Below, piece by piece: positions 477 through 32,249 of a DNA stretch of 64,000 nt. Under the pieces are notes generated by a model. That model ran no database searches and had not been told where the DNA came from. It saw only the letters and a program-made list of their open reading frames with translations. The DNA is from an uncultured virus (IMG/VR IMGVR_UViG_3300006737_000001). Its lineage: Duplodnaviria > Heunggongvirae > Uroviricota > Caudoviricetes. A program made the translations under genes and the position numbers. Location: positions 1-64,000 of IMG/VR virus record IMGVR_UViG_3300006737_000001; one strand, written 5' to 3'. How positions within the stretch are numbered: the stretch's first letter is position 1; every line of letters starts with the position of its first letter.

Positions 477-1619
477 TTAACTGATGACGATTTGACCGGC
501 TTCTGGTCTAACGACCTTCAATCCGTATCTCATGGACATGTAAGAACCAACAATTCCGAATCCCGGATTTGCTTCTTCTACAGTCAATGGTCTTCTCTCT
601 ACGTAAGCCATTGGCTTAACGGAAAGGTCAAAGACACCAAATCTTCCGCTTGGAACCCATGCGTTCACTACAACGTTTAGACCGTAGAGTTGTCCTACTA
701 GTCCTCCTGTTGATAACATTGAACCGAATGGATTACTTCCTGCGGCGGTAGGCATAACATTTCCACCATCTGCTACTGCAACTGATTGAGCTGTAGTAAA
801 GATACTTGCGAAATCTGCCATCTTCAACATATTCTCGTATTGAGCTGGATTAATGAACATGTGTGTTGCATTGTATCCGTGCTTAGACATACGTGAAATT
901 GAGGAGGCGACGTCACTTAGTGTAAATGAGTCAGTTCCTGTGGATGTAGCTGCGTTGTATGAAGCTGCTCCAGATAGGATGGTTACGCCTTGATTTGCGT
1001 AGTCGTCTAATCTGCTTGCAGTTCCTGTCAATGTAGCTTTTGCTCCAAGGAAACCACCGTTTTCTGCCTTACTGAAATCAGATATGTTTGATTCGTCGGA
1101 AGTAGCTGCTGCGTATGAACCACCAGATTGTGGGGTAATTGTGGAGTAAGCTCCTCCAGACAATACACCTGTTTGTAGAGTTGCGTCACCGATACCAAAT
1201 ATTACGTTAGTAACGTGTTGGGTCATGTGCCTGTCTACAGCTCTGCGGGCTTCATTCAAAGCCATTTCTACTTCGTTGAATCTTGAATCTTCAATCATTC
1301 TTCGGGTTACACCAATTGCTATACCCCACTCTTTAACTGCCACTCTCTCAGAGCGTAGTTTTGTGTGTTGGTATTGCGGAGTTGTACCTTCTTCTAGTTG
1401 TTCTAGCTTCATGCTAGGTTTGCCGAAAGTAATATCAATATTACCCCCTGTATCAGTAGACATTGGGTCTGCAAAGAATTGCATAACTGGAAGGTCTGCG
1501 ACCTTGTAGTCAATAATTGCGTCTTTGTAGTCAATGAGTACTCTTTCACCTGTTCCACCAGTGTTGGCGTAGGAACCTGTGTTCAGGGTTGTCAATAGAC
1601 CGGGAGTTGCGTCGACCAT
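477..1619 (-). CDS. Major capsid protein (HK97 fold)
   Basis: 380 aa; EG..P E-loop-like segment, G.LYGL.VVV and C-terminal RYGLKVVRPEA typical of HK97-like MCPs; downstream of protease/scaffold. Confidence 0.85.
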   Translation of the reverse strand: MVDATPGLLTTLNTGSYANTGGTGERVLIDYKDAIIDYKVADLPVMQFFADPMSTDTGGNIDITFGKPSMKLEQLEEGTTPQYQHTKLRSERVAVKEWGIAIGVTRRMIEDSRFNEVEMALNEARRAVDRHMTQHVTNVIFGIGDATLQTGVLSGGAYSTITPQSGGSYAAATSDESNISDFSKAENGGFLGAKATLTGTASRLDDYANQGVTILSGAASYNAATSTGTDSFTLSDVASSISRMSKHGYNATHMFINPAQYENMLKMADFASIFTTAQSVAVADGGNVMPTAAGSNPFGSMLSTGGLVGQLYGLNVVVNAWVPSGRFGVFDLSVKPMAYVERRPLTVEEANPGFGIVGSYMSMRYGLKVVRPEAGQIVIS

Positions 1620-1630
1620 AGTTTATCTCC

Positions 1631-2026
1631 TTAGAGAGTCTGACACTTGGTCAGTCCTGCTCCACTGTTGTTTTCTAATGTGACGGCTTGAGCTTTTGGT
1701 GCAGTTGCTGCGTTTGTAGCTGTGACCAATTCTCCGGGCGTTGCTGCCCCCATCATCATAATGATACCTGCATTGACGTTAGCACATGCAATGTTTAGAA
1801 TTACTCCAACACCTGTTACTAGAGACACTATTGCTCCAGCGTCGGCATCGACTAATGCTATTCCTGCGTATGCAAACTTAGCGGCGGCGTCACCTGTATC
1901 TGCTAGCTGCAATTTACCATTGGCATCAACGGTACATGCAGAGCCGGCGGTTATTGCTTCAGCTGCTTCGTATGGTAAAATACGAGCTGGAGCTCCACCA
2001 TCGTTAATTAAAATTTCTGTTGCCAT
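1631..2026 (-). CDS. Capsid decoration/cement protein
   Basis: 131 aa Ala/Gly-rich, AAEAITAG...GIAL pattern, between scaffold and MCP. Confidence 0.6.
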   Translation of the reverse strand: MATEILINDGGAPARILPYEAAEAITAGSACTVDANGKLQLADTGDAAAKFAYAGIALVDADAGAIVSLVTGVGVILNIACANVNAGIIMMMGAATPGELVTATNAATAPKAQAVTLENNSGAGLTKCQTL

Positions 2027-2028
2027 AT

Positions 2029-3285
2029 TTAATCACCTTTTAGATAGTAGTCTCTGTTCAATTTGATTTTTCCGTCAACTACTTTCATACCGAACTCTCT
2101 TTTGGTTTCTGGTACTTCACCTTCGTCAGATGATTTACCTTTTCCGAAAGAACGTTCGACGTCGTTGCTTGGCTCAGGCATTGCTGCTAGAGCGTCGCTA
2201 AATCCAGTCAATCTGGATTCATCCCAAGCGGAAAGTTCTTCGACACGAGCATCCTTTTTGTCTTCTTCGATTGAACCGAATAAGATTTCTTTGGATATAA
2301 TTGCTTCTACTGCTTCAACTTTTCTTGCTTCTGCTTCTTTGGTTAATCGGTCTTCTTCTGCTTTTTTGAAAGTTTCTAATTCTTTCATAGCTGCTTTGAA
2401 TTCAGATTCGATTTCCTTTTTAGATGCTTCCGCTTCTTCAAGTTGTGTGCGTAGAGAAGCGAACTCGCGTTCGACAATGCTTTCTGCGTCGGATTTTACA
2501 GTTGTTTCTTTTGTCTCTTCTGACATATTTACCTCTGTTTGTTCTGACTCGCATCCACAATTTCCTTCTTGGCCACCACAACCACAGTCGTGGTCGTCTT
2601 CAGGTTCTTGTGAATCACATTTCGTTTCTATAGTACATTCTTTACAGACTGGGTCCATCTTTTCATTGTCAATGAAACTTACCTCTGTAGGACGAATATT
2701 AGTGGCATAATTGTCACCCATAACGTCAATATCATTTGAAAACCAATCAATACTAACATGTGTCATGTCTCCTTCCTTAACTTTATTCATTACCTCTTGA
2801 CCGCGGCCATGTTTATTAGATACTGTTGCCAACATCTTGATTGCGGTCTTTCCATTGTCCATCTCGACCAACTCAGGTTTCGTTGCCATGCCGATTAGGT
2901 CCTCAGTTGTTCTCTGATGGTCTACATATATGGGGAGTTCTGAAAATTTAGTTAAACTATCTTTCAACATACCTCCTTCTATATAAACTTTATGTTCTTC
3001 TCCGTCAACCTCATATTCATGAGGTCCGGATGTAATAGCGATAACTGGGAATGATACAGAGTCGACTCCCTCATCGCTGGAAAATGTCATATCTTCACCG
3101 TCAGCCACTGCTAATGCGAATGACCTACGAACAGGTTCAGTGCTTTTGCCCTCTGCAAATTCCCGCTCTACGCCATTCTCATGAGCCCACATGCTACACA
3201 TGCCGGCTGCAATCTCTTCGGGGTTATCAAAACCCCTTTTCTTCAGGTTAGCTTTTGTGTCTAACATACATTTGTCGAATGTCAT
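2029..3285 (-). CDS. Prohead protease fused to coiled-coil scaffold
   Basis: PIYVDH, VSIDW, EVSF protease motifs; Cys-rich linker; acidic coiled-coil C-terminus; between portal and MCP. Confidence 0.75.
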   Translation of the reverse strand: MTFDKCMLDTKANLKKRGFDNPEEIAAGMCSMWAHENGVEREFAEGKSTEPVRRSFALAVADGEDMTFSSDEGVDSVSFPVIAITSGPHEYEVDGEEHKVYIEGGMLKDSLTKFSELPIYVDHQRTTEDLIGMATKPELVEMDNGKTAIKMLATVSNKHGRGQEVMNKVKEGDMTHVSIDWFSNDIDVMGDNYATNIRPTEVSFIDNEKMDPVCKECTIETKCDSQEPEDDHDCGCGGQEGNCGCESEQTEVNMSEETKETTVKSDAESIVEREFASLRTQLEEAEASKKEIESEFKAAMKELETFKKAEEDRLTKEAEARKVEAVEAIISKEILFGSIEEDKKDARVEELSAWDESRLTGFSDALAAMPEPSNDVERSFGKGKSSDEGEVPETKREFGMKVVDGKIKLNRDYYLKGD

Positions 3286-4589
3286 GCTCTATCTCCTGTT
3301 GCGTTTGCGGAGGGTTTATTTCCCCTATTTTGTGCTCTAGCGGATTCTTCTTTCTTATCTTCGTTTTTTCCGCCAGAAATATTAGCATTCTTATCACTTT
3401 GTTCTTGTTTGATTGGTGATGCCTTAATATCTTCAGAAGTTTCCATATCTAGTTCAGCTACTCCTTCAGGGTCAAGACCTCTTTCCTCTCTCACTTCACC
3501 GGGTGATAATACACCTTCTGACAAATAAATCATATCTGTCTTAGCTTTAGTGAATGCGTCATCTGTATTAATTTGCCTAAACTTAAATTTAGCATCGCCT
3601 GACTCTAATTGAGGCATCAGCTGGGAATTAAGTGCTCCCTCTATCATTGTTTGTAGGTATCTAACGTAAGGTTCGAATATTGGACGAGCCTTTTCAGGGT
3701 CTGTCCACATTGTTTTTGGTGTTTTTAATGCTAAATGAATTTTATCTAATATATCATCTGTATATTTACCATATTCAAAAGCACGTTGTGTACCTTGTAA
3801 CTCTTTGATAGTTATGTCGTTTCCATGGATTATATCTTCACCGGGCGCTAAAGTATTAAAAGCATCTACAATTTCATTAATTTTATCTGGACCATATGGC
3901 ATATCTGGTAAACCACATGATACATCAAATCGACTAGATGCATATTTATTAAGGGCTGCACCAATATCTCTTTCTGCATAATCTTTTAAATCCACTAAAT
4001 AGAGAATAGGATGTATATCTGATAAACCATAAGCAAAATCATCGAATTGATTATTTTTCAACTCTATAATCTCACTTTCTTCAAACCTAACGTTTTCTTC
4101 ATCATCACCTATTTTTTGATAATAATATTCTATTTGTCCGTGCTCATTCCTTTTAACAAACATATTTTGACTAGAACGTACAATTAAATTATCTCCTGTC
4201 CATTCTAAATACCCTGTACCAAAAATACGAGCATTTCTTATCCATCCATATAAAATATGTTCAATATTTATATCACGGAACATTTCTTCTAACTCTTCCC
4301 TTACATTGTCATCGGCTGTAACTATATCAAAATTATCTTTGACAGCATACAAGCAAGGTAAATCAATTAGACTTCTTACAATAGGGTCTGATAGGTAAAC
4401 ATTCATATAAGTTCTATTTTTACCAATGTGTGGCTCATAGTCCTTATTTTGTGCAAATCCACCGAATCCCTTATTTATTTTAAGTCTTTGAATTACTCCC
4501 GCACCGTAACTTCGTGGGTCGTCTTTTTTATACGCAGGATTGCCACCAACTCGGGCAAAAGTGCGTCTAACTCTATCTATAAACGACAT
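3282..4589 (-). CDS. Portal protein
   Basis: 435 aa after terminase; ARIFGTGY, YGLSDI, GVLSPGEVRE portal-like motifs. Confidence 0.85.
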   Translation of the reverse strand: MSFIDRVRRTFARVGGNPAYKKDDPRSYGAGVIQRLKINKGFGGFAQNKDYEPHIGKNRTYMNVYLSDPIVRSLIDLPCLYAVKDNFDIVTADDNVREELEEMFRDINIEHILYGWIRNARIFGTGYLEWTGDNLIVRSSQNMFVKRNEHGQIEYYYQKIGDDEENVRFEESEIIELKNNQFDDFAYGLSDIHPILYLVDLKDYAERDIGAALNKYASSRFDVSCGLPDMPYGPDKINEIVDAFNTLAPGEDIIHGNDITIKELQGTQRAFEYGKYTDDILDKIHLALKTPKTMWTDPEKARPIFEPYVRYLQTMIEGALNSQLMPQLESGDAKFKFRQINTDDAFTKAKTDMIYLSEGVLSPGEVREERGLDPEGVAELDMETSEDIKASPIKQEQSDKNANISGGKNEDKKEESARAQNRGNKPSANATGDRA

Positions 4590-4612
4590 GGCTATTTATA
4601 ATTAACTCTGAT

Positions 4613-4630
4613 GGGTATATAAAGTTTTTG
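4613..4630 (-). promoter_or_regulatory. BRE/TATA promoter of portal operon
   Basis: Minus strand CAAAAACTTTATATACCC about 30 nt upstream of portal ATG. Confidence 0.6.
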
Positions 4631-6301
4631 TTAGATTCCCCTTAAGGATTGCTTTAAAAGTCTAGGATTGCGTCTAGTTGTCGCAAAAAGTGGCCGTTTA
4701 CTATAGGTTCCTGCGTTATTAGCGTTATTTCTACTTATTGGTCTAGATACAACACCTGCACCATAGTTTCCTGTCATAGGTAGCATACTTAAAGTAGCAT
4801 GTAATCCCATTGCAGAACTATCACAATAATCATCGTGTTTACCACTTGGTGCTGAAATCTTTTCAGTTTTATCAGCAGCATCCATTGTATATTCTAAATC
4901 AATATGTTCTCTTGTCCACTTATGAATTAACTTAGCTTCATTAGCAGGTAAGTTTTCAGGATTAGGTACTCTTACTCTTCCTTGTTGAATATATGATTGG
5001 AAATCTCTGTACATCTGAGTTTTAGTCCCTTTGGGACCACCTGTAAAAACAAACGCCACAAAATGTATATTAGCATCTAAACACCCTATCCGTAAGTCTT
5101 GTTCAACCGCACCACCAATACCAGTACAGTCCACAATGAGACGAGTAGCCCCAAGACCAAGGGCAACATCCATAATACGTTTACGTTGGTATGGAATATC
5201 ATGTCCACCAGTTCTGGGGTTGATTTCTTCAACGTAAATAAGTCGTGCAATATTTTCTTTGTCAGATTTATCAAGGGACCATGCACTAATGACAGTAGAA
5301 TTAACAGATTTGCCAATGTCAACACTAACATTAATATTGCTTCCTCCCGACTGTCCATCCCCATCCAACCTAGTAAGTTTGTAATCATCATAACACCTTT
5401 TTATTTTTTCTGCATTAAACACATTCGATACCGACTCTACAAATTCACATTCATATTCAGTTCGCCAATGTATGGAGTCTTCTCCCCACTCCATCATTTT
5501 ATCTAACATTTCTTCGTCTGTGTAAGGTGCTGAATAAGCTTCACCTTTGTTCACTGCATCTCTCCATGTATAGTGTAATCTTTTAAAAGTATCTGCATAG
5601 CCGTCGTCATATAAATATTTATACATGTGGTTATCTTTAGACTTAGGTGTACCCAAATTAATAAAAGGAGCTTTATTAGCAACAATAGAAGGCTCTACAT
5701 TATCAATGAACAACTTATCGTCGATGAGTGGAGACTCATCAACAACTAAGAAAGTAGGGTGTTGCCCTCGTATAGCTTGACCTTGGTTACTAGGCGCTAA
5801 TGGAGCCCTACGCATTATTGTGCCCCCCTTAAGTGTTATATTGGGCTTGTTATGAAAACGATAATTCTTAACTAAGCCATTCAAAAAAGGGTTATCAGCA
5901 AAATGTCTATAACAATAATTAAATATTAAAGCTGCTTGGTCTTCTGTAGGAGCAAGTATAAATACTAAATCTCTAAATCTATTAAAAAACATATATATAG
6001 TTACCGCTACAGACAATGCGAACGATTTCCCACTGCCTCGTGGAGCTAAGATAGCTAATTTGGTTTGTTTACCATCATCTCTTTCCATTAAACATTCTAA
6101 TACTATATCTTCTTGTAGTGGTCTTAATTTTAAAGGCCGTTGTTTACCATCAATTAAATATGTTGTACAAAAAGCTCTAAGCAATTTGCGCATTTTTTCT
6201 TTATCTCGTCTACAACTTTTGAATATATTCTCTAAAGAGCGTGAATCTAATCCACCTTTACCTGTCAACAGGCTCTTCAGAGGGCTTTTGGGTTTCGTCA
6301 T
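4631..6301 (-). CDS. terL: Terminase large subunit
   Basis: Walker A APRGSGKS, Walker B LVVDES, GTP coupling motif, RNase H-like VDIG...HDDYCDS. Confidence 0.93.
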   Translation of the reverse strand: MTKPKSPLKSLLTGKGGLDSRSLENIFKSCRRDKEKMRKLLRAFCTTYLIDGKQRPLKLRPLQEDIVLECLMERDDGKQTKLAILAPRGSGKSFALSVAVTIYMFFNRFRDLVFILAPTEDQAALIFNYCYRHFADNPFLNGLVKNYRFHNKPNITLKGGTIMRRAPLAPSNQGQAIRGQHPTFLVVDESPLIDDKLFIDNVEPSIVANKAPFINLGTPKSKDNHMYKYLYDDGYADTFKRLHYTWRDAVNKGEAYSAPYTDEEMLDKMMEWGEDSIHWRTEYECEFVESVSNVFNAEKIKRCYDDYKLTRLDGDGQSGGSNINVSVDIGKSVNSTVISAWSLDKSDKENIARLIYVEEINPRTGGHDIPYQRKRIMDVALGLGATRLIVDCTGIGGAVEQDLRIGCLDANIHFVAFVFTGGPKGTKTQMYRDFQSYIQQGRVRVPNPENLPANEAKLIHKWTREHIDLEYTMDAADKTEKISAPSGKHDDYCDSSAMGLHATLSMLPMTGNYGAGVVSRPISRNNANNAGTYSKRPLFATTRRNPRLLKQSLRGI

Positions 6302-16083: not shown

Positions 16084-16215
16084 ATGGATAACAAAACATC
16101 AATAGCTGTAATTAGTGCATTGAAATATAAACTTCAAAACGAAGATTGTAAAATCAATTTACCAAAAGCAACTTATGCAAAAGCATTAAGAAATAGTCTT
16201 ATCAGACTAAGATAA
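16084..16215 (+). CDS. 43-aa basic protein
   Basis: GGAGGT SD; MDNKTSIAVISALKYKL... Confidence 0.55.
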   Translation: MDNKTSIAVISALKYKLQNEDCKINLPKATYAKALRNSLIRLR

Positions 16216-16302
16216 ATATATAAGGCCCTTGAATACGAGGGATTTTACCTGCGTGGGTGAGAACCTGCGCGGGTGAGAAACAGCCCAGATGAGAAAGTGA
16301 GA

Positions 16303-16354
16303 TTTTCCACTCGTGTGAAAAAACCTTTATATAGGGTAGTGTTCTTGGTATATT
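16303..16354 (+). promoter_or_regulatory. Palindromic box + BRE/TATA cassette promoter 1
   Basis: TTTTCCACTCGTGTGAAAAAACCTTTATATAG...TTGGTA, then ATG. Confidence 0.8.
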
Positions 16355-16477
16355 ATGAGCAGAGGAGAACCATTTGGCAGTTGCGAGGACTGCGGGCTTG
16401 ATGAGGTCGAACTATTCGGCGGACTGTGTGAAGATTGTGAAACAGAAATGTTTGCGACTTTCTGGACAGGAGACTGA
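16355..16477 (+). CDS. 40-aa zinc-finger microprotein
   Basis: MSRGEPFGSCEDCGLDEVELFGGLCEDCETEMFATFWTGD; leaderless. Confidence 0.7.
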   Translation: MSRGEPFGSCEDCGLDEVELFGGLCEDCETEMFATFWTGD

Positions 16478-16513
16478 GAGAAACCTTTATATAGGGTGAC
16501 TCAATGGGATACT

Positions 16514-16597
16514 ATGAGAAAATTAAGCATACGAGAAATTAAACTTCAAACAATCGCATTAAGAAGAATACGCAAAGAAATGGAAAAGAATCTTTAG
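16514..16597 (+). CDS. 27-aa basic microprotein
   Basis: MRKLSIREIKLQTIALRRIRKEMEKNL, 28 nt after its own AAACCTTTATATAG. Confidence 0.6.
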   Translation: MRKLSIREIKLQTIALRRIRKEMEKNL

Positions 16598-16599
16598 AT

Positions 16600-16825
16600 T
16601 CCATGAGTCCCCAACACTGTAAGATGTGGCCGTAGGAGTAGGTGCACCTTTTGGAAGAGGCAAGTGTATGAGTAAGTTTAATAAACTTTCCAGCATGGGG
16701 ACAAGAGGAGACGCCTGACAAGTGATGGCGAAGGGCCAGTGGCATAAGTCCGCCCGAGCGTTAAACGTAGCGACGCATCTCCAGCCCAGTGAGCCGGCCT
16801 ACTACGGTGGGACAGCTGGGCGCCC
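16600..16825 (+). ncRNA. Candidate structured RNA with K-loop and pseudoknot
   Basis: GC-rich, no plausible sense ORF; GTCCCCA/TGGGGAC, GCCCAG/CTGGGC, cgc-CTGA-caa-GTGATG-gcg. Confidence 0.55.
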
Positions 16826-16876
16826 TTTTCCACTCATGTGAAAAAACCTTTATATAGACACACCCGTTGGTAATAT
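16826..16876 (+). promoter_or_regulatory. Palindromic box + BRE/TATA cassette promoter 2
   Basis: TTTTCCACTCATGTGAAAAAACCTTTATATAG...TTGGTA, then ATG. Confidence 0.8.
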
Positions 16877-17026
16877 ATGACTAGAAAACATTTTGTAGCA
16901 ATAGCTCAGTTATTAGCCAAGCATGACGCAGACCTTAATATGGTCCGAGACTTTGCCGGTATGTGTGCCGAACACAACCCACGCTTCGACAGAGAAACCT
17001 TTATAAAGGCCTGCTCAATGGAGTAA
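16877..17026 (+). CDS. 49-aa helical viral protein
   Basis: MTRKHFVAIAQLL...NPRFDRETFIKAC; leaderless. Confidence 0.7.
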   Translation: MTRKHFVAIAQLLAKHDADLNMVRDFAGMCAEHNPRFDRETFIKACSME

Positions 17027-17027
17027 T

Positions 17028-17171
17028 ATGAGTAAAATACAAGACATGAGAAACGCCCACCGTTTCCGCAGAGTAGCACGCAGAACCATAACCAAAAACA
17101 AGATTGACTTAGGAGTCCATGAGCAACTTATGGCTATCCGTTTGGGTCTTGCTGAGGATGTGAGAAATTGA
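17028..17171 (+). CDS. 47-aa basic protein
   Basis: MSKIQDMRNAHRFRRVARR...; promoter embedded in preceding ORF. Confidence 0.65.
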   Translation: MSKIQDMRNAHRFRRVARRTITKNKIDLGVHEQLMAIRLGLAEDVRN

Positions 17172-17284
17172 AAAGCATCTTAGATATTTTAGATGACATG
17201 GTCATCTCTGGCATAGATGAGGCAGGGGACTATATTGTCCTCTGCGGGTGTGAAGATGCACCTTGCTGTGGGTGCAACCTGTGA
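17168..17284 (+). CDS. 38-aa Cys-rich microprotein
   Basis: TTG start overlapping TGA; ends CGCEDAPCCGCNL. Confidence 0.55.
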   Translation: MKSILDILDDMVISGIDEAGDYIVLCGCEDAPCCGCNL

Positions 17285-17402
17285 GCTACGACAAACCACT
17301 CAAACGCAGTTGGAAGAAAGAAACAAATAAGATTATCAAAAAGGCCAGCCAATAGCTCGTTTGTTTTTCGGACACCTCCGGGGGGTAGGGCCTCCCCCCA
17401 CC

Positions 17403-17453
17403 TTTTCCACTTGCGTGAAAAAACCTTTATATAGACATACTCATTAGTATATT
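17403..17453 (+). promoter_or_regulatory. Palindromic box + BRE/TATA cassette promoter 3
   Basis: TTTTCCACTTGCGTGAAAAAACCTTTATATAG; preceded by G-run/C-run hairpin 17379-17399. Confidence 0.8.
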
Positions 17454-18127: not shown

Positions 18128-18179
18128 TTTTCCACTTGTGTGAAAAAAGCTTTATATAGGGGTTCCCCCTTGGTAATAC
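18128..18179 (+). promoter_or_regulatory. Palindromic box + BRE/TATA cassette promoter 4
   Basis: TTTTCCACTTGTGTGAAAAAAGCTTTATATAG...TTGGTA, then ATG. Confidence 0.8.
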
Positions 18180-18789: not shown

Positions 18790-19010
18790 GCACCTGAGCA
18801 AGTCAGAAAACTGCTCACCTTATATTTATGGAAGTAGCTCTTCCGTAATCGGGTATGGCCGAACAAGTCCGCCACGGACTAAGGCACAGGACTGCGCAAA
18901 CCGAGAAGCGACTGCTGGAGGGATGCAAAACTGGTATGGGTTCTACTATGTAGTGGCATAAACCCATTGGAGGTATACATTAAATCCTCCTACCCATCCT
19001 TATTTTTTTT
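18790..19010 (+). ncRNA. Candidate multibranch structured RNA
   Basis: TGAGCA/TGCTCA, TTATGGAAG/CTTCCGTAA, AGTCC/GGACT, ATGGGTT/AACCCAT, GGAGG/CCTCC, GGGTA/TACCC; ends in T8. Confidence 0.5.
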
Positions 19011-19021
19011 ATAATTTTTAT

Positions 19022-19039
19022 TTTTCCACTCGAGTGAAA
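19022..19039. promoter_or_regulatory. Fifth palindromic box without downstream TATA
   Basis: TTTTCCACTCGAGTGAAA. Confidence 0.6.
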
Positions 19040-20149: not shown

Positions 20150-20262
20150 TGAACTGCGTAGATTGTGGACAGTATTCAACATATGATACAGGTGGACACG
20201 AAGTGAATAAGTATTCATGCGAACACTGTTTAGTAGAAGATTACATTACAGGTGAACTATGA
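20149..20262 (+). CDS. 37-aa zinc-finger microprotein
   Basis: MNCVDCG...CEHC; overlaps both neighbours. Confidence 0.6.
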   Translation: MNCVDCGQYSTYDTGGHEVNKYSCEHCLVEDYITGEL

Positions 20263-21437
20263 GTAGAAGAGAAGGAAGACCATCACCAACTGAGTCAGCT
20301 ACTGACTTCCCTCTACACTATGAACGTGTAGGCGGAGACGGTAGATATTGGCACGTGAGTGAAGACAAGCGTGGAGTGAGAAGATGGAAGAAGGGATTAT
20401 ATCATGGTTCAGATGAGGATAAACTTCTCAGTTCAACAACCGAAACGCTTATAAAGGATGATATATCTGGAGATACAATGGAAGACAAAACCGACCACAG
20501 AGGACTCGACAGTCTATTCGACCGAGACAGTCCCACGTTAGAAGAGGAACCTACCCCCGAAGAAGTGGTAGAAGTAGAGAAAGACACAGTGATGTCTAAA
20601 CTAAGAGGGTCAGTCAATGTGCCCGAAGAGTTTAAATTCGCTGATGACATGACATTCTATACTATGTTGAGAAACATATTTAGAGGTAAAAACATTCTTA
20701 TCACAGGTCCCTCAGGATGTGGTAAGTCGAGTCTCGGTAAGATATTAGCTGATATCACTGCAAAAGACTTTTATAGTTTTAACTTCGGTGACACTATGAA
20801 TCCCTCAGCTAAGTTATTGGGTGACACTAAGTATGACAAAGAAGCCGGAACATGGTTCAAACCATCTCGGTTCGTCAATGCAATACAAAGTGATTCATTC
20901 ATTATGTTAGATGAGGTAACACGTGACCGAACAGGTGACTTAGCTAACATTCTCATGCCGGTATTAGATGGTCAAAAGTATTTAGCTCTCGATGAGAGTG
21001 AAGATAGCGATACTGTCTCAGTTAGTAAAGGTGCGTTCTTTTACGCTACTGCTAACATAGGTAGAGAGTATCTCGGTGCATCTCATGATTTAGACCGAGC
21101 ATGGAAAGATAGATTCACAGGTGGTATATATGAATTAGAATACTTACCACCACAGAAAGAGAAAGAACTGATACAGAACAGAAACCCTCAGCTTACAGAC
21201 TACGATGGTGATAAGATTGTAGACTTTGCTAAGAGAGTGCGTGACTTACATTCTTCAGACGAACTCAATACTGCTGTTTCAACACGTATGTGTTTAGCAT
21301 CGGCTGAGTTAGTTGTTGATGGGATGCCTTTAGTCGATGCACTGAAACACACCTGTTTACCGTTCTACCCTGTTCAGGGTGGTGACGATACTGAGAGAGT
21401 TCGTATTATACAAGTTATTCAATCAATGGGTGAATAG
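20259..21437 (+). CDS. MoxR/CbbQ-family AAA+ ATPase
   Basis: GPSGCGKS, IMLDE, ATAN, LDRAWKDRF, STR sensor 2; alternative start 20478. Confidence 0.88.
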   Translation: MSRREGRPSPTESATDFPLHYERVGGDGRYWHVSEDKRGVRRWKKGLYHGSDEDKLLSSTTETLIKDDISGDTMEDKTDHRGLDSLFDRDSPTLEEEPTPEEVVEVEKDTVMSKLRGSVNVPEEFKFADDMTFYTMLRNIFRGKNILITGPSGCGKSSLGKILADITAKDFYSFNFGDTMNPSAKLLGDTKYDKEAGTWFKPSRFVNAIQSDSFIMLDEVTRDRTGDLANILMPVLDGQKYLALDESEDSDTVSVSKGAFFYATANIGREYLGASHDLDRAWKDRFTGGIYELEYLPPQKEKELIQNRNPQLTDYDGDKIVDFAKRVRDLHSSDELNTAVSTRMCLASAELVVDGMPLVDALKHTCLPFYPVQGGDDTERVRIIQVIQSMGE

Positions 21438-21824
21438 ATGGTTAAGAAGAAAGTATTACGTAGAAAGCACACATATTGGCATCAGTTGGCTAAGTTCCTT
21501 ATACTGAATGGTTACAAACCAACAATGATAGGAAAGATAATCAAGGATGTATTCCCCGATACTGAGGTCAATGGTAGACACGTAGGTGCATACAAACGTA
21601 GATTGATACAAGATGAGGATATTCTCATCCCAAACAAACCAACTATGAATATCAATGAAGTAAGAGAAATAGCTGAAGGCTTAGTTAGTAACGAAGATAT
21701 GTTTATATATAAATGTGTTATCGGTTCAGCTAAGAGAAGCCTTAAGTGCTTCGAGTATAAGTTCCGTAGTGAGGATAAAGATTTAGTAAGTGAGGTAGAT
21801 AAATGGATTATGGCGATTCAATAG
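21438..21824 (+). CDS. Hypothetical (possible HTH) protein
   Basis: 128 aa between AAA+ and vWA genes. Confidence 0.55.
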   Translation: MVKKKVLRRKHTYWHQLAKFLILNGYKPTMIGKIIKDVFPDTEVNGRHVGAYKRRLIQDEDILIPNKPTMNINEVREIAEGLVSNEDMFIYKCVIGSAKRSLKCFEYKFRSEDKDLVSEVDKWIMAIQ

Positions 21825-23917
21825 ATGAATGGACTGAGGACAGTGAAGATGATTTCTGTTATGCGTGTGACGATTGGACTGATGCCGACGGTCATGGCAA
21901 CTGTAAAGATTGTGGCAACAGTTACACTACAGTAGACCCATTCGTCAGTCCGACTATAGCAAAGACATACAGTTCACCCGCACCTACTGTCTCAGCACAT
22001 GGTGACCTTTGGAATAGAGGTTCGGGTTTCACATGGGGTGGTAGTTCATATTGGTCCGGTGGTGGAACTACTTCATGGGGTAATTGGTCTCGGTCTACAA
22101 ACGACAGTGCTCGTATGCTTAAACACAAAAGACATTTAGATTCTCTTTGTAAAGTAGTAGACCCAACTGTGAAACATTCATTACACTTCGCAACTGATTC
22201 GAAGAACTATTCGAACATGGCTAATGGAACTATATATGTAGATGGGACTCTCATTGAGAATGATGATGACAAGCTCGATGTATTAGCTGGTCTCTCAATT
22301 CATGAGAAGTTACACTTAGTTCATACTAAACCATTAACTAAATGGGAACGTGAGTATAGTCACCAAAACCACCTCAGTCCGGCACAGGAAAGATTACTAC
22401 ATAACATATGTAATATTATAGAAGATGAATATATAGAATCTCAGTTAGCTAAGACTCATGCCGGATACACTATGTATATTGAGAAGGTTAAACAACACTT
22501 CTTTGGTAAGCATGGCCACAAGATAGATGAGTTCAACGGTAATCCTATCGCTGACATAATGAATACATTGTTAGCTATGGTAAGATACCCACAATCTATC
22601 TCAGCTGACCGTAGAAAGAAACACTCTAAACATATTCAGTTCTTTGCCCGTGCTCTAAAAGATGCACTAACTGATAGACATTCAACCTTTATGGCTATGG
22701 ATAGTATATATTGTTATATGAATCAACTCGCTAAAGAAGAAGCTAAGAAACACAAAGGCACCGACGAAGAAGAAATACTACGACGTGCTGATGAAAGACT
22801 CAAAGACCTTTTAGGTGAGTGGGGTGAATCTGTTGGTGAAGAGATGTCAGCTGAAGACATGGAACGTATCAAAGATAGACTTATAGAAAAAGAACGTGAC
22901 GAAGCTGAACGTGGTGATAGATATGACCGTAAAGAGAAGTTATCACGAGCTTTGGATAAGTTCGCAAAAGAACTCGCTGATTATAGTTTAGATAGGGATA
23001 CCATCTCAGACGAACTCGCTAATGAAATAGATGAGTTAGCTGACAGTGACTACTCTGAAGAGAAGTGGGATGTGTCCCGTGCTCTCGGTTTGAGACAAGG
23101 TGGTAAAGTTACATGGCGTAATCAAAGAGCCTCTTCAGACTATGATAAGAGTAAATACACTGAGGCTGAAAGAAATATGAAATCAGCAATTGGTCAACTA
23201 AAGAGAAAGATACAACTATATGGTGACACACGTATTAACACCATTCGTAACCAACGAAGAGGTAAGTTAGATAAACGTATGCTACATAAGATACCTCTCG
23301 GTCGACCCGACTTATTCAAGAATGTGATTATTGACGAAGACAAACCACTCGATGTATGTCTCTTAGTCGATGAGTCGGGTAGTATGGGTTCATGGAAGAT
23401 GGCTAAAGCACGTGAGACTGCGATTGCTTTACGTGAATCACTCAAAGACAATCAAGCTCTCAACTTATGGGTGTTTGGTCACACAGCTGACGGTTATGAA
23501 TGGGATGGTAAAGGTGACACTAATATGTCAGTGTATTGGTCACCTACATATAAATCAGATATAAAAGCTATGGGTGCTATGAGAGCACGTAGTGAAAACA
23601 GAGATGGTATGGCTATCCTCGCATCAGCCGAGAGAGTCAAAGCTGAGTCACCCTCATTAGGTGGTAACAAACTTATGATTGTTATCTCAGACGGTGAACC
23701 ATCAGCAGACAAATACAGATTCCCAATCAGTGTGCCACATACTAAGAAGTGTGTCAGACACATAGAGGGACAGGGATGGAATGTAATTCAAATAGGCATC
23801 TCAGGTGCACGTGAACATATTATGAAAGATATGTTTACTAATTACATCCTGTGTGATGATACAGGTGAGTTACCAACTAAGGTAAGTAAAGTAATTAGAA
23901 GGGTGATAAAAATATGA
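21803..23917 (+). CDS. vWA (MIDAS) domain protein, CobT-like partner of the AAA+ ATPase
   Basis: LLVDESGSM, VISDGEP; N-terminal CxxC..CxxC and HEKLH motif. Confidence 0.85.
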   Translation: MDYGDSIDEWTEDSEDDFCYACDDWTDADGHGNCKDCGNSYTTVDPFVSPTIAKTYSSPAPTVSAHGDLWNRGSGFTWGGSSYWSGGGTTSWGNWSRSTNDSARMLKHKRHLDSLCKVVDPTVKHSLHFATDSKNYSNMANGTIYVDGTLIENDDDKLDVLAGLSIHEKLHLVHTKPLTKWEREYSHQNHLSPAQERLLHNICNIIEDEYIESQLAKTHAGYTMYIEKVKQHFFGKHGHKIDEFNGNPIADIMNTLLAMVRYPQSISADRRKKHSKHIQFFARALKDALTDRHSTFMAMDSIYCYMNQLAKEEAKKHKGTDEEEILRRADERLKDLLGEWGESVGEEMSAEDMERIKDRLIEKERDEAERGDRYDRKEKLSRALDKFAKELADYSLDRDTISDELANEIDELADSDYSEEKWDVSRALGLRQGGKVTWRNQRASSDYDKSKYTEAERNMKSAIGQLKRKIQLYGDTRINTIRNQRRGKLDKRMLHKIPLGRPDLFKNVIIDEDKPLDVCLLVDESGSMGSWKMAKARETAIALRESLKDNQALNLWVFGHTADGYEWDGKGDTNMSVYWSPTYKSDIKAMGAMRARSENRDGMAILASAERVKAESPSLGGNKLMIVISDGEPSADKYRFPISVPHTKKCVRHIEGQGWNVIQIGISGAREHIMKDMFTNYILCDDTGELPTKVSKVIRRVIKI

Positions 23918-26447: not shown

Positions 26448-27053
26448 ATGAAAGAGATAATGGAAGAATATAGCACCACGTTCTTTGAATGTATGAGTGC
26501 GTGGCCAGATGATATCAAAGAAGATATATACAAACTATACGCATACCTCAGGGTATGTGATGAGATGGTTGAAGGTGAGAAGACTTTACATGACTTCAAA
26601 CATTGGAGGGAAGTCATAGAACAATTCTACGAAGTGAGTGATAAGTATCAGTTCGAAGGCGAGTGGCTCTCAGACTTTCACATAAGTATGTATCAAGACA
26701 TGGTGAAGAAAGAACATACTATAGTGTCTATGTTAGAATACTGTAAGGGTTCAGCTGAATCAGTTGGTATGATGATGTCAAAGATATTAGGATGTCACCC
26801 ACGCTGTGAGATACACGCCAGAGCATTAGGTAGAGCATTTCAAGTTATTAACTTCATACGAGATTATGATGAAGATGTAGATAATGGTTATCATTACATC
26901 ACAGATAACTTTAGTGCATATTTAGAAATATTTTATCAGGATTTAGATAACGGCATGGATGGAATAGATTATATACCTAAAGAGCTACAACCACCCATTC
27001 TTATGGCTGTAGAAAAATACATGGCTGTAGCTAAGAAAGTAAGTGAAGCCTAA
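26448..27053 (+). CDS. Squalene/phytoene synthase family protein
   Basis: LYAYLRVCDEMVE, YCKGSAESVG, ALGRAFQVINFIRDYDED. Confidence 0.82.
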   Translation: MKEIMEEYSTTFFECMSAWPDDIKEDIYKLYAYLRVCDEMVEGEKTLHDFKHWREVIEQFYEVSDKYQFEGEWLSDFHISMYQDMVKKEHTIVSMLEYCKGSAESVGMMMSKILGCHPRCEIHARALGRAFQVINFIRDYDEDVDNGYHYITDNFSAYLEIFYQDLDNGMDGIDYIPKELQPPILMAVEKYMAVAKKVSEA

Positions 27054-29181: not shown

Positions 29182-29388
29182 ATGGCAGAAAAAAATAGCT
29201 TAGAACTAACAGCCGGATTGTTCCGGAACACTGATAAGAACGGAAACATCTACTACTCAGGTAAGTCCGAAGGTGGAGATGAATATGTTATGTTCAGGAA
29301 TACCTATTGGAAAGAAGGAAGTAACAAACCATACTTCAGACTAATGAAAAGAACTGATGGAGCATCTACTCCAACAGTGGAGGACTAA
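29182..29388 (+). CDS. Small beta-rich protein (possible ssDNA-binding)
   Basis: GLFRNTDKNGNIYYSG...KPYFRL; strong SD. Confidence 0.55.
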   Translation: MAEKNSLELTAGLFRNTDKNGNIYYSGKSEGGDEYVMFRNTYWKEGSNKPYFRLMKRTDGASTPTVED

Positions 29389-29389
29389 A

Positions 29390-29761
29390 ATGTATGGAAG
29401 AGATGCAGACCGTATGATGGATATGTGGTTGGACTTACTATCACAGATAGAACAAGTTCCCTCAGGCCGTCATGCCCTATCTACACTAAGTAGAAAGGAT
29501 GTCTCAGTAAATGTAGAGAATGGCACCATAACAATCACAGCTGAATTAGCTGGTTTGGATAAAGAACAGGTTGATGTGGAAGTCAGTAGTAGAACAGTCA
29601 CTATCGTAGCCAACTCAGAGAGAAAGAACTTCAAATGGGAAGAGACTTTTCTATTTGAGTTAGACCCAGAGTCTACAAAAGCTACTATGGTGAATGGTAT
29701 ACTAGACTTAGTCATAGAAAAGAAAGTGAAGACATCAGCTAAGAAAGTAGAGATAGAATGA
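29390..29761 (+). CDS. Small heat-shock protein (Hsp20)
   Basis: AELAGLDKEQVDV...ATMVNGILDLVIEK alpha-crystallin motifs. Confidence 0.85.
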   Translation: MYGRDADRMMDMWLDLLSQIEQVPSGRHALSTLSRKDVSVNVENGTITITAELAGLDKEQVDVEVSSRTVTIVANSERKNFKWEETFLFELDPESTKATMVNGILDLVIEKKVKTSAKKVEIE

Positions 29762-30508: not shown

Positions 30509-31981
30509 ATGAAAAAATATGAAATATACGATTTGCTAAGATATTTTCACAATGCAAAGAAAAAAGACGGAACACTTTTCCCTATACTAGGAGAGGATTC
30601 GTTAGCTCTAACTACAAGTCTATCTTACTTGTTAGAAGATACTAACTTCTGTATCAAAGCATACAGTGGAACAGGTAAGACTGTATTGATGGAAGCTGTG
30701 GCAAACCTACTTCCAGAGGAGTATGTCTACTCAGTAGAACATATGTCAGAGACAGCAATATGGTATGACGAGGATAAAATCAACAAAGCTAGATTTGTTT
30801 TTATTCCAGAAGCACAAAAGATACCAGAGGGTGTCATGGAAATCATTAAAACATGGGCAGACGGGCGAACAGCCCAACGTAAAAAGACAGATGTTACTAT
30901 CAAGATGGCAGTAACACAGTGGTTAAAACCTAAATATGTTTTAATGGCAGTAGCAGTAGAGAATGATAAAGGTTCAGCTATGTTTGATGCTGAGTTAGAA
31001 CGTAGATGTATGATTATGCATACAAACCCTACAGTCAAACAGACAGAAAGAGTTATCAAACATAAACTTTTACATTCAGCTTCACCAAAAGCCTCTATGT
31101 CTTCAATGTCAGATAAAGAAATAAAAGATTTAAAGAAACACATACTAACTACATTGAGAGAAAGAGACGAAGATGATGCGACTGTATTAAAGAATCCATG
31201 CGCCCCATTTCTATTTGACGCAATACCATCAGCATTCCCTGTATCACGGTCGAAGGTTCAGTATCTATTGAAGTTGATTAATGCTATAGCAAGGTTTTAT
31301 CCAGATGAGATAGTTAAAGTCAAACAAGATGGTATACAATATGGACTAGTATCACCTAAACATAACTGGCTCGGACTGAGAATATATCTTAACTCATTTG
31401 TAGAAGAATGCTTACACATGCCAAGTCATGGAACAGACATACTTAAACTATTTCCCGAAACTAGATTAGATAGGTTTGGTTTTGCAGATAGTGAGACAGT
31501 TAAGATGTCAGAGAATGAATTGAAAAAGGCTGCTAAATCAGCTGGTCTACCATTTACCAAATTAAGACCAGTTATAGCAGGTTTAATGATGACAGGGTTC
31601 TTAGAGTGTGATGAAGAAGGAAGTAAAAAACTTTACTATAAGAGCCCACTCATTACAGAACCAGTATCAAAAATAAATTGGAGTGATTTAATTGAAGAAA
31701 CGAAAGAGTTTATACGAAAAGAGTGGCCTAAAGTATCTGATGAATACATTGGGCGCAGTTGTAGCAGTATCAGGATTGTTGACCCGTTTAGTGGGGACAA
31801 CATTGAACTGGGTGCGAGAGCAGAGACAGCGGTAGAAGTTGACACTGGTGATTATCCGTCAGTGTTCAAGTCTTCTAGTGACGCTAAGATTAAAGACTAC
31901 GAGTCTTTTCTACTAAATGCAGAGGGAGATTACAATGACGAAGAAGACAAAGCAGTCAGAGAATACTTTCAGAAGAAGTAG
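30509..31981 (+). CDS. AAA+ ATPase, putative replicative helicase
   Basis: Walker A AYSGTGKT, degenerate Walker B FIPE, ELERR arginine finger, C-terminal winged-helix-like region. Confidence 0.6.
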   Translation: MKKYEIYDLLRYFHNAKKKDGTLFPILGEDSLALTTSLSYLLEDTNFCIKAYSGTGKTVLMEAVANLLPEEYVYSVEHMSETAIWYDEDKINKARFVFIPEAQKIPEGVMEIIKTWADGRTAQRKKTDVTIKMAVTQWLKPKYVLMAVAVENDKGSAMFDAELERRCMIMHTNPTVKQTERVIKHKLLHSASPKASMSSMSDKEIKDLKKHILTTLRERDEDDATVLKNPCAPFLFDAIPSAFPVSRSKVQYLLKLINAIARFYPDEIVKVKQDGIQYGLVSPKHNWLGLRIYLNSFVEECLHMPSHGTDILKLFPETRLDRFGFADSETVKMSENELKKAAKSAGLPFTKLRPVIAGLMMTGFLECDEEGSKKLYYKSPLITEPVSKINWSDLIEETKEFIRKEWPKVSDEYIGRSCSSIRIVDPFSGDNIELGARAETAVEVDTGDYPSVFKSSSDAKIKDYESFLLNAEGDYNDEEDKAVREYFQKK

Positions 31982-32249
31982 ACTTCCTAAGCGAGATGAG
32001 ATGTTTGCAGTAGTCATAGAGATGTCAGGGGGTTCTAGAATGAGAGCCCTCTGTGCAGACAGTAAAACCCGCATGATTAGAATCGGTGGTAAACTGAAGA
32101 AAAGAATGTGGTGTAGAGAGAATGATTTAATTATAGTTAAGCCTTGGGTTATACAGAGTGACCAAAAGGCAGACTTAGTTTATAGGTATCTCCCTACTGA
32201 GAGAAAGAATATAAGTAAAAAAATACCAGAGGAGTTAAACATATGGTGA
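31935..32249 (+). CDS. eif1a: Translation initiation factor aIF-1A
   Basis: RLP...EMFAVV.EMSGGSR...IRIGGKLKKRMW.RENDLIIVKPW..Q..KADLVYRY. Confidence 0.9.
   Translation: MTKKTKQSENTFRRSRLPKRDEMFAVVIEMSGGSRMRALCADSKTRMIRIGGKLKKRMWCRENDLIIVKPWVIQSDQKADLVYRYLPTERKNISKKIPEELNIW

Follow-up and report, generated by a model that had tools for sequence, protein, structure and literature searches.

What is encoded by the GC-rich stretch near position 16,700 in the genome of an uncultured tailed virus? The window, as we call the whole 64,000-nucleotide (nt) stretch of DNA analysed here, comprises positions 1-64,000 of a virus record (IMG/VR IMGVR_UViG_3300006737_000001; Caudoviricetes) that is complete at 67,299 bp and carries direct terminal repeats. 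A sequence-only reading of the window had proposed that this locus carries a structured RNA with a kink-loop (K-loop), the ligand of the archaeal protein L7Ae, and a loop-loop pseudoknot. Comparison with relatives shows that the plus strand specifies a structured RNA family that is restricted to viruses, with its own helices and, at the level of sequence, a K-loop signature. The best explanation for the element is a virus-specific RNA that most likely works in trans as a ribonucleoprotein (RNP) with L7Ae on its K-loop, and we put the probability of this reading at about one in two.

A structured RNA family with covarying helices

Relatives were collected from IMG/VR with the two most conserved blocks of the element, P6 and P8 (helices are labelled P1 to P9; Table 1). 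Exact-word scans returned 5, 11, and 17 contigs, and a scan with a two-block pattern returned 75 marine metagenome loci. The family totals 109 loci, which reduce to 68 distinct sequences. The K-loop motif, whose loss in related viruses had been named, together with a lack of L7Ae binding, as the refuting outcome, is retained in all 68. The helices were derived by hand from alignments A1-A5 and then built into a 187-position covariance model of the core, R1, which omits P9. R1 matched all 68 of the source sequences given to it with expectation values (E) of at most 3.6e-21. In the 64-kb window, it has a single match at 16599-16785 (226 bits), and sequence homology with the relatives likewise begins at 16599. 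The core spans 16599-16782, a clade-specific 3' hairpin follows up to 16821, and in the clade of the window the element extends to about 16829.

Covariation was evaluated on 58 distinct rows and 35 pairs, giving 1943 cells. Paired bases fill 96.9% of these cells, compared with 82.6% after shuffling and 35-63% when the partners are slid. Both sides have changed in a compensatory manner in 23 of the 35 pairs, and the covariation score of 0.394 compares with no more than 0.088 when the partners are slid. Compensations in P1, P5, and P8 are also visible in plain MAFFT alignments. In P1, where both sides have changed in six of the six modelled pairs, GUCCCCA/UGGGGAC is replaced by GUUAUCUCA/UGAGAUAAC. 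In P5, both sides have changed in all five pairs, as in the replacement of GGAGA/UCUCC by GGGGU/ACCCC. The helix cells hold 90 G.U against 14 A.C combinations, which identifies the plus strand as the RNA strand. All plus-strand frames are interrupted in each of 63 sequences, and the core lengths of 181-212 nt represent all three classes modulo 3.

The reality of the element is accepted because of conservation and covariation in the relatives, and not because of a motif pattern or the fold energy. In fact, the minimum-energy fold of 16596-16840 is ordinary on the plus strand (z = -0.68; 48 of 200 shuffles are as good) as on the minus strand (z = +0.60), so that the thermodynamic signal is uninformative. 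The sequence-only reading was thus right in seeing a structured RNA here, and its description of the locus as GC-rich agrees with a G+C content of 0.60-0.62 at 16700-16849, against 0.32-0.46 in the 1-kb bins of the window (about 0.37). The strings that it singled out are all present, including GTCCCCA (16607-13) with TGGGGAC (16696-702) and the hairpin formed by GCCCAG (16784-89) and CTGGGC (16816-21).

The element has no counterpart among known families in the searches made. An Rfam scan, which had been suggested as a check, gave no match in 16200-17200 with the 4227 models of Rfam 15 at E up to 10. At gathering scores, the sole Rfam match in the whole window is a manA RNA at 18826-19000. In the loci of 10 relatives, three Rfam matches were obtained at E up to 5, none of them on the element. 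ARAGORN found no transfer RNA (tRNA) or transfer-messenger RNA gene in the window, and blastn of 16200-17200 against phage records gave no match. An exact scan with the 21-base P6 block, allowing one two-base ambiguity, of one genome each from 185,579 species returned only one match. This lone cellular match, in an alphaproteobacterial metagenome-assembled genome, was rejected as a chance 21-mer; it lies inside a coding region with unrelated flanks. The family is, by these searches, known only from viral or unassigned marine contigs. Among 27 cobS-related loci examined, seven carry the RNA, all of them already in the family, and three give weak matches. In the seven viral loci, the RNA lies 3.7-5.3 kb upstream of cobS.

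Table 1. Predicted features of the element and its surroundings (window positions)
Feature	Positions	Strand	Remarks
Promoter motif AACCTTTATATAG, archaeal type, similar to a B recognition element/TATA box	16482-16494	+	Would drive the transcript with the 27-amino-acid open reading frame and the RNA
27-amino-acid open reading frame, translation MRKLSIREIKLQTIALRRIRKEMEKNL	16514-16597	+	Just 5' of the RNA
5' leader UUCC (16599-602) and linker AUGA (16603-606)	16599-16606	+	Leader forms the 5' side of the leader-P3 loop pseudoknot (proposed)
5' domain closed by P1 (GUCCCCA 16607-13/UGGGGAC 16696-702)	16607-16702	+	Four hairpins inside
P2	16615-16628	+	Weak; no compensatory change
P2b, GCC/GGU, loop GUAGGAGUA	16629-16643	+	Both-sided changes in 3/3 pairs
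P3, loop UUGGAA	16647-16660	+	Both-sided changes in 2/3 pairs
P4, loop UAAUA	16674-16688	+	Both-sided changes in 3/3 pairs
Junction AAGA between the two domains	16703-16706	+	AA-N-A conserved (alignments A3 and A5; divergent members)
76-nt four-way junction closed by P5 (GGAGA 16707-11/UCUCC 16778-82)	16707-16782	+	
P6, stem CGCC/GGCG, 11-nt loop UGACAAGUGAU	16712-16730	+	K-loop candidate; first junction arm
P7, variable arm	16733-16755	+	Outer GGG/CCC retained (both-sided changes in 2/3 outer pairs), inner part clade-dependent
P8, stem GCGU/ACGC, 11-nt loop UAAACGUAGCG	16758-16776	+	Loop invariant
P9, GCCCAG/CUGGGC, clade-specific 3' hairpin	16784-16821	+	Variable apical part; outside the conserved core
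T-run (16826-29) within palindrome TTTTCCAC-N4-GTGAAAAA	16826-16847	+	Adjoins the next promoter (16845-57)

The four-way junction and its K-loop candidate

The C'/D' K-loop signature consists of a D box CUGA and a C box RUGAUGA, which form 1b1n G:A and 2b2n A:G pairs (PMC6009581). The sequence-only reading had picked out CGC-CTGA-CAA-GTGATG-GCG at 16712-16730 as such a motif, and this string does fit the signature at the sequence level and is the most conserved part of the element. P5 runs unbroken into P6, whose tip reads CUGA-CAAG-UGAUG. Tandem G:A/A:G pairs are possible beside the Watson-Crick stem; the proposed pairs are G16717.A16725, A16718.G16724, and U16716.U16726, and U16723 would protrude.

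In the 68 distinct sequences, the P6 hairpin is invariant except for U16726, which is A in about a third of them, and C16712, which can be U and then keeps a U.G pair. The U.U position of the K-loop thus varies to U-A. The same holds for contigs found independently of each block: the K-loop is unchanged, save for U16726 to A, in 11 contigs collected via the P8 block alone, and the P8 loop is invariant in 17 contigs collected via the P6 block alone. A scan of IMG/VR with N at the four bases of the G.A pairs returned 15 known contigs and two unrelated ones, with no true variant. A further scan with N at three non-signature loop positions gave no other true variant except contig L124. In the remaining arms, the outermost P8 pair G16758-C16776 is replaced by A-U in 11 of the 58 distinct rows, and P7 of divergent members consists of UUCG-capped stems.

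L124 is a cobS-related IMG/VR contig with a weak R1 match (14.7 bits, E 0.017). At 1156-1270, it has a P5 of GUCGGU/ACCGAC and a P6 hairpin with the loop CGACAACUGAA, after which come GAAG and arms unlike those of the family; a promoter-like motif comes immediately after. The loop keeps both G.A pairs and the U, and three other bases of it differ. This locus is possibly a distant variant of the junction domain; two further scans found no second copy of it.

A K-loop of the C'/D' type raises the question of whether the element is a guide RNA. Read from the sequence, no terminal C box (RUGAUGA) or D box (CUGA) lies 10-13 nt outside the internal motif, and Rfam gave no C/D match. The 9 nt on the 5' side of CUGA, where a single-stranded guide would be sought, are the 5' strands of P5 and P6, and P5 covaries at all five pairs. 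Because the bases beside CUGA are paired in these stems and a terminal C/D box pair is lacking, a guide role is unlikely.

The 5' domain and two proposed pseudoknots

The sequence-only reading had also proposed that CCGTAGGAGTAGG (16630-42) pairs with CCTACTACGG (16798-807) in a loop-loop pseudoknot. Both strings are present, but the pairing is not kept across the family. The 5' arm corresponds to the loop of the small hairpin P2b. The 3' arm sits at the tip of P9, in an apical loop whose sequence and length are variable and for which divergent members offer no homologue. For the window sequence, the duplex energy is -15.8 kcal/mol compared with -10.7 kcal/mol for shuffled loops, and 5% of the shuffles are as good. 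On alignment A4, 76% of 100 cells are paired, a level that 207 of 500 shuffles reach, and the 3' arm is missing in five of 15 sequences. The duplex energy beats 95% of loop shuffles in nine of 37 parsed sequences, all nine with P9 loops of the GCCUAC type, the other 26 of the 63 sequences being unscored (AGCC variants missed by the pattern for the 5' arm, or no P9 found). The loop-loop pairing may thus be a clade-specific contact and not a feature of the family.

A different pseudoknot is better supported. The leader UUCC (16599-602) is complementary to GGAA (16653-56) in the P3 loop, and this 4-bp pairing holds in 100% of 208 cells. Both sides have changed in a single aligned sequence, L012, which has CUAC/GUAG at the same positions of an 8-nt loop. 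In L036 and L039 (AACC/GGUU) and in L044 (UACC/GGUA), the complement of the leader also lies in a hairpin loop; in these three, the first bases of P1 are an equally good partner for the leader. The pairing of the leader with the P3 loop is likely but not proven.

The UGA of the linker is conserved, divergent members included. Together, UGA (within 16603-16606) and AA (16703-16704) flank P1 and are conserved even in the most divergent members. These bases could form G.A and A.A pairs where the proposed pseudoknot, P1, and P5 meet, and they may represent a second K-turn-like junction motif.

A predicted short early transcript and its borders

The promoter motif AACCTTTATATAG occurs 11 times in the window, compared with 0.26 expected. 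An ATG follows 19-20 nt behind it at six of the 11 sites, including the one upstream of the RNA, and this spacing is that expected of a TATA box before a leaderless messenger RNA (mRNA). The sequence-only reading had placed the RNA in the 3' part of a transcript with a 27-amino-acid open reading frame (ORF). In agreement with this, the ORF is present at 16514-16597 behind the promoter motif at 16482-94, and the RNA would lie in the 3' portion of a short early transcript of a virus whose expression signals are of the archaeal type. The reading frame is preserved in relatives L026 and L029, whose sequences were read directly, despite many synonymous third-position changes. On this basis, we regard the ORF as a real small gene.

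Many relatives have an upstream hairpin in place of the small gene 5' of the RNA. It consists of a covarying stem and a conserved 28-nt loop, AAGAUGAAAAUAGCAAAAUAGUAUUGCA, and lies about 20-70 nt 5' of the RNA. Its stem variants include GGAUGGGG/CCCCAUCC, GGGUCGG/CCGACCC, and UCCGAG/CUCGGA. It is seen in L018, L023, L025, L027, L028, L030, L031, and L034, as well as in two RNA-library contigs; it was sought in the window and not found there.

At the 3' side, the stem of P9 covaries among the members that have it (GACCAC/GUGGUC, GCCCGG/CCGGGC). No hairpin homologous to P9 follows P5 in L012, L036, L039, L042, L044, L045, L055, L058, and L061, and several P9-less members have a TATA-like motif within a few bases after P5. 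P9 is probably terminator-proximal, and the transcription unit likely ends at P9 and the T-run at 16826-29. The palindrome TTTTCCAC-N4-GTGAAAAA that follows has five sites in the window (16305-16322, 16828-16845, 17405-17422, 18130-18147, and 19022-19039), compared with 0.05 expected. Four of the five directly precede a promoter motif, and its arms covary in relatives (CCAC/GUGG). The palindrome may be a terminator hairpin, an operator, or both. Just 5' of the palindrome-promoter pair at 16305-16334, the plus strand has direct repeats (CCTGCGTGGGTGAGAA, CCTGCGCGGGTGAGAA, and CAGCCCAGATGAGAAA) at 16240-16300, to which a regulator may bind. A pairing of the 5' CAUGAGU with ACUCAUG of the downstream palindrome is present in the window and was rejected, as it is not preserved in L018, L025, and L028.

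Nine RNA libraries from three studies share small fractions of the words of the stretch, and four of them were compared in detail. A 363-nt contig from a ribosomal RNA-depleted metatranscriptome matches 16599-16823; its flanking sequence is unlike on either side and includes, upstream, the hairpin conserved in many relatives. A 151-nt contig from another study matches 16646-16796. The borders of similarity in the RNA-library contigs coincide with the borders of the element, and parts of the stretch without RNA-library cover are uninformative. Downstream, at 17027-17400, where tiny ORFs and GC-rich hairpins are found, contigs of metatranscriptome X6 reach a word depth of about 100. Two X6 contigs have other sequence in place of 17099-17168, which indicates a variable insert between relatives.

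The virus and its host

The window belongs to a tailed virus with capsid, portal, and large terminase (TerL) genes at 477-6301 on the minus strand and a tail tape-measure-like gene. It also encodes a family B DNA polymerase (PolB), MazG, a pyrimidine-dimer glycosylase, and RecU. For TerL and PolB, the relatives among bacterial and haloarchaeal viruses are all distant (<30% identity), and these two proteins therefore do not reveal the host lineage. The ORF at 31917-32249 on the plus strand encodes aIF-1A, with 107.2 bits against NF003084 (cut-off 91). Compared with solved structures, it matches archaeal aIF1A best (E 4e-23) and then eukaryotic eIF1A; bacterial IF-1 was not among the matches listed. 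A viral aIF-1A suggests that the host is an archaeon and that the virus interferes with translation initiation. Given the 11 copies of AACCTTTATATAG and the aIF-1A gene, these viruses appear to infect archaea, without the lineage being narrowed further. L7Ae would therefore be present in the host.

Auxiliary genes at 20259-23917, 39855-41720, 26448-27053, and 29357-29761 encode a CobS-like ATPase with a VWA (CobT-like) protein, a B12-dependent ribonucleotide reductase, a squalene/phytoene-synthase-like protein, and HSP20. This set is otherwise typical of marine cyanophages. The cobST genes are found in bacterial as well as archaeal tailed viruses, according to PMC8651126.

Proposed role and alternatives

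Under the preferred reading, a trans-acting RNP with L7Ae, the promoter at 16482-94 would be used early in infection to make a short leaderless plus-strand transcript whose 3' part is the RNA. The transcript would encode the 27-amino-acid peptide first and then the RNA, and would presumably end where placed above. The RNA would fold independently into the P1-closed 5' domain, with its leader tucked into the P3 loop, and the four-way junction P5-P8. The K-loop would then recruit host L7Ae; the odds that L7Ae binds the candidate K-loop are, in our estimate, evenly balanced. The other invariant loops (P8 UAAACGUAGCG, P4 UAAUAAA, and P2b GGAGUAGG) would serve as tertiary contacts or bind further partners. 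As a scaffold or decoy, the particle would contribute to the take-over of the host, a role that we consider doubtful. A bolder version is rather unlikely: the element would be the first structured RNA class specific to archaeal viruses, an approximately 190-nt pseudoknotted particle that captures L7Ae, the K-turn protein universal in archaea, by its invariant K-loop, and perhaps also by the UGA/AA motif at the base of P1, and so disturbs or redirects the biogenesis of host RNPs (C/D and H/ACA small RNPs (sRNPs), RNase P, and ribosomes). In this version, its release from the 3' end of the early mRNA might follow from an exonuclease resistance of the knotted 5' end.

Several observations weigh against L7Ae recruitment or limit its support. 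With at least three flanking pairs required, CTGA-N3-9-TGATG has one match in the window where 0.26 would be expected, and at least one match also arises in 22% of 300 dinucleotide shuffles; the bare K-loop pattern occurs eight times against 4.2 expected. Being this frequent in shuffles, the pattern alone is not significant. P6 never changes on both sides, so that covariation is uninformative on the very helix that carries the candidate. The spacer CAAG is as invariant as the G.A bases. This exceeds what L7Ae would require, and the loop may serve another contact instead. The invariance of the P6 and P8 loops is in part imposed by the search patterns, which required these loops, and the alignment behind the covariation values was fitted to the model's own structure and favours it. 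No gene of an adjacent RNA-binding partner protein is consistent across the relatives. Nor is the RNA present throughout the wider virus group: 13 of 20 cobS-related viral loci with 8 kb of upstream sequence lack a strong copy near cobS. The RNA-library contigs reveal neither strand, ends, nor level and could stem from DNA carry-over; a neighbouring gene is covered at similar depth. An antisense mode of action has no target in view, as the reverse complements of six conserved loops do not occur elsewhere in the window beyond chance.

Position within the transcript suggests another role. As a cis-acting 3'-end module of an early mRNA, the element would protect against exonucleases or be a stable product of decay or processing, with P9 and the U-run terminating transcription and with no target in trans. 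The element always lies directly behind the stop of a small ORF or the conserved upstream hairpin, and before a promoter or palindrome. The manA RNA of the window is similarly placed, after ORFs and before a palindrome. The leader tucked into a loop by the proposed pseudoknot also fits a protective module, as do the RNA-library contigs that cross the 5' border into the upstream hairpin. However, ten helices and several invariant loops of 8-11 nt far exceed the needs of stabilisation, and divergent members retain the core while P9 and the upstream gene change. We consider a purely cis-acting module unlikely.

The kind of conservation seen here, with variable covarying stems, invariant junctions and loops, a probable pseudoknot, and a multi-helix junction, is like that of ribozymes and aptamers, and a protein partner is not evident. 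A ribozyme of a new class, self-cleaving or otherwise catalytic, is nevertheless improbable. The element matches no Rfam ribozyme family, and a candidate cleavage site was not identified. RNA-library contigs from two studies run across the 5' border (16599), and one runs past the 3' border, so that cleavage there, if any, would be incomplete (the contigs could be DNA).

A ligand-sensing RNA, that is, a riboswitch-like aptamer controlling read-through into downstream genes, is somewhat less probable again. In its invariant junction bases and in a K-motif placed in the first arm of a four-way junction, the element resembles riboswitch aptamers. Furthermore, the riboswitch candidate manA RNA adjoins the element in L042 and L044. 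Against this stand the absence of an evident expression platform, the location of the element outside a 5' untranslated region (UTR), and the separate promoter of the downstream gene in the window and most relatives.

The P5-P8 domain is exactly 76 nt long in the window and has a cloverleaf-like topology, which would suit a tRNA-like mimic on which RNase P, the CCA-adding enzyme, or other enzymes of tRNA act. Its proportions are not those of a tRNA: the stems have 5, 4, 3-4, and 4 pairs, two loops are conserved at 11 nt, and no linker separates P5 from P6. The middle arm varies in length, with a UUCG cap in some members, CCA does not follow P5, and neither ARAGORN (in the window) nor Rfam reports a tRNA. 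Such mimicry is very improbable. Finally, a minus-strand coding sequence or a chance GC-rich stretch is extremely improbable: at least one stop-free minus frame crosses the core in 29 of 63 sequences, and the window has minus-strand ORFs of 68 and 51 amino acids here, but the other 34 sequences have no such frame, core lengths fall in all classes modulo 3, the substitutions in the helices are compensatory, and the excess of G.U over A.C cells fits a plus-strand RNA.

Comparison with known systems

We regard the element as a new class of virus-specific structured RNA. Structured non-coding RNAs are well catalogued in bacteria and phages, whereas our literature searches, which covered their sources in part, found none described for archaeal viruses. 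In the main text of PMC10690425 and a 2026 preprint, as far as these were available, there was no structured RNA family of archaeal viruses and no viral K-loop RNA; the supplements of PMC10690425, with thousands of IMG/VR candidate RNAs, lie outside this comparison and could contain the motif under a number. The RNA is complex, combining about ten helices with a four-way junction and a probable pseudoknot. It is well supported by covariation and common across ocean samples, whereas cellular genomes lack it at the sensitivity of our scan. If its K-loop binds L7Ae, a viral RNA would target a core factor in the assembly of archaeal ribosomes, sRNPs, and RNase P. This would be a new form of host take-over, and it would provide a natural L7Ae ligand of use to synthetic biology. 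If the element is a ribozyme or ligand sensor instead, it would be a new class of those.

The closest similarity is to the C'/D' K-loop of archaeal box C/D small RNAs (sRNAs). CUGA, the 4-nt spacer, UGAUG, and the Watson-Crick closure fit the consensus of PMC6009581. Unlike box C/D sRNAs, the element has no terminal C/D boxes and no free guides, as the flanks are paired in P5 and P6. In this RNA of about 190 nt, the motif sits at the end of one of the arms of a four-way junction, and its spacer is invariant. Archaeal H/ACA RNAs carry apical K-turn or K-loop motifs, and the hairpins of these sRNAs resemble the element in having a long helix (here P5 and P6, with nine continuous 5'-strand pairs) capped by a motif of the K-loop type. 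The element differs from them in lacking a 5'-strand internal loop, or pseudouridylation pocket, between P5 and P6. ACA does not follow the basal stem either; the bases after P5 are AGC, AAA, ACC, and others.

The manA RNA (RF01745), which PMC2864571 describes from cyanophages, two gammaproteobacteria, and marine metagenomes and treats as a candidate 5'-UTR riboswitch, is likewise a structured RNA of marine viruses in an early region with repeated promoters. In sequence and structure, the two are not similar, and the element gives no manA match. The manA RNA of the window (plus strand, 62.8 bits) has counterparts directly after the element, behind a promoter-like motif, in the divergent relatives L042 (715-895, 48.8 bits) and L044 (719-897, 53.3 bits). 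So far tied to cyanophages, manA RNAs thus occur also in viruses with archaeal expression signals.

Two groups of viral RNAs offer possible functional parallels. Exonuclease-resistant RNAs occur in viral 3' UTRs. Like them, the element lies in the 3' part of a transcript and has a 5' end that is probably pseudoknotted to a loop within a multi-helix junction. It is much larger and has no sequence or Rfam match to them, and its own resistance is only proposed. In animal viruses, abundant small RNAs bind host RNA-binding or ribosomal proteins. The element has no homology to these RNAs, its host would be archaeal, and binding is a proposal here. Under the best explanation, however, it would share their principle, namely a structured viral RNA that captures a host protein.

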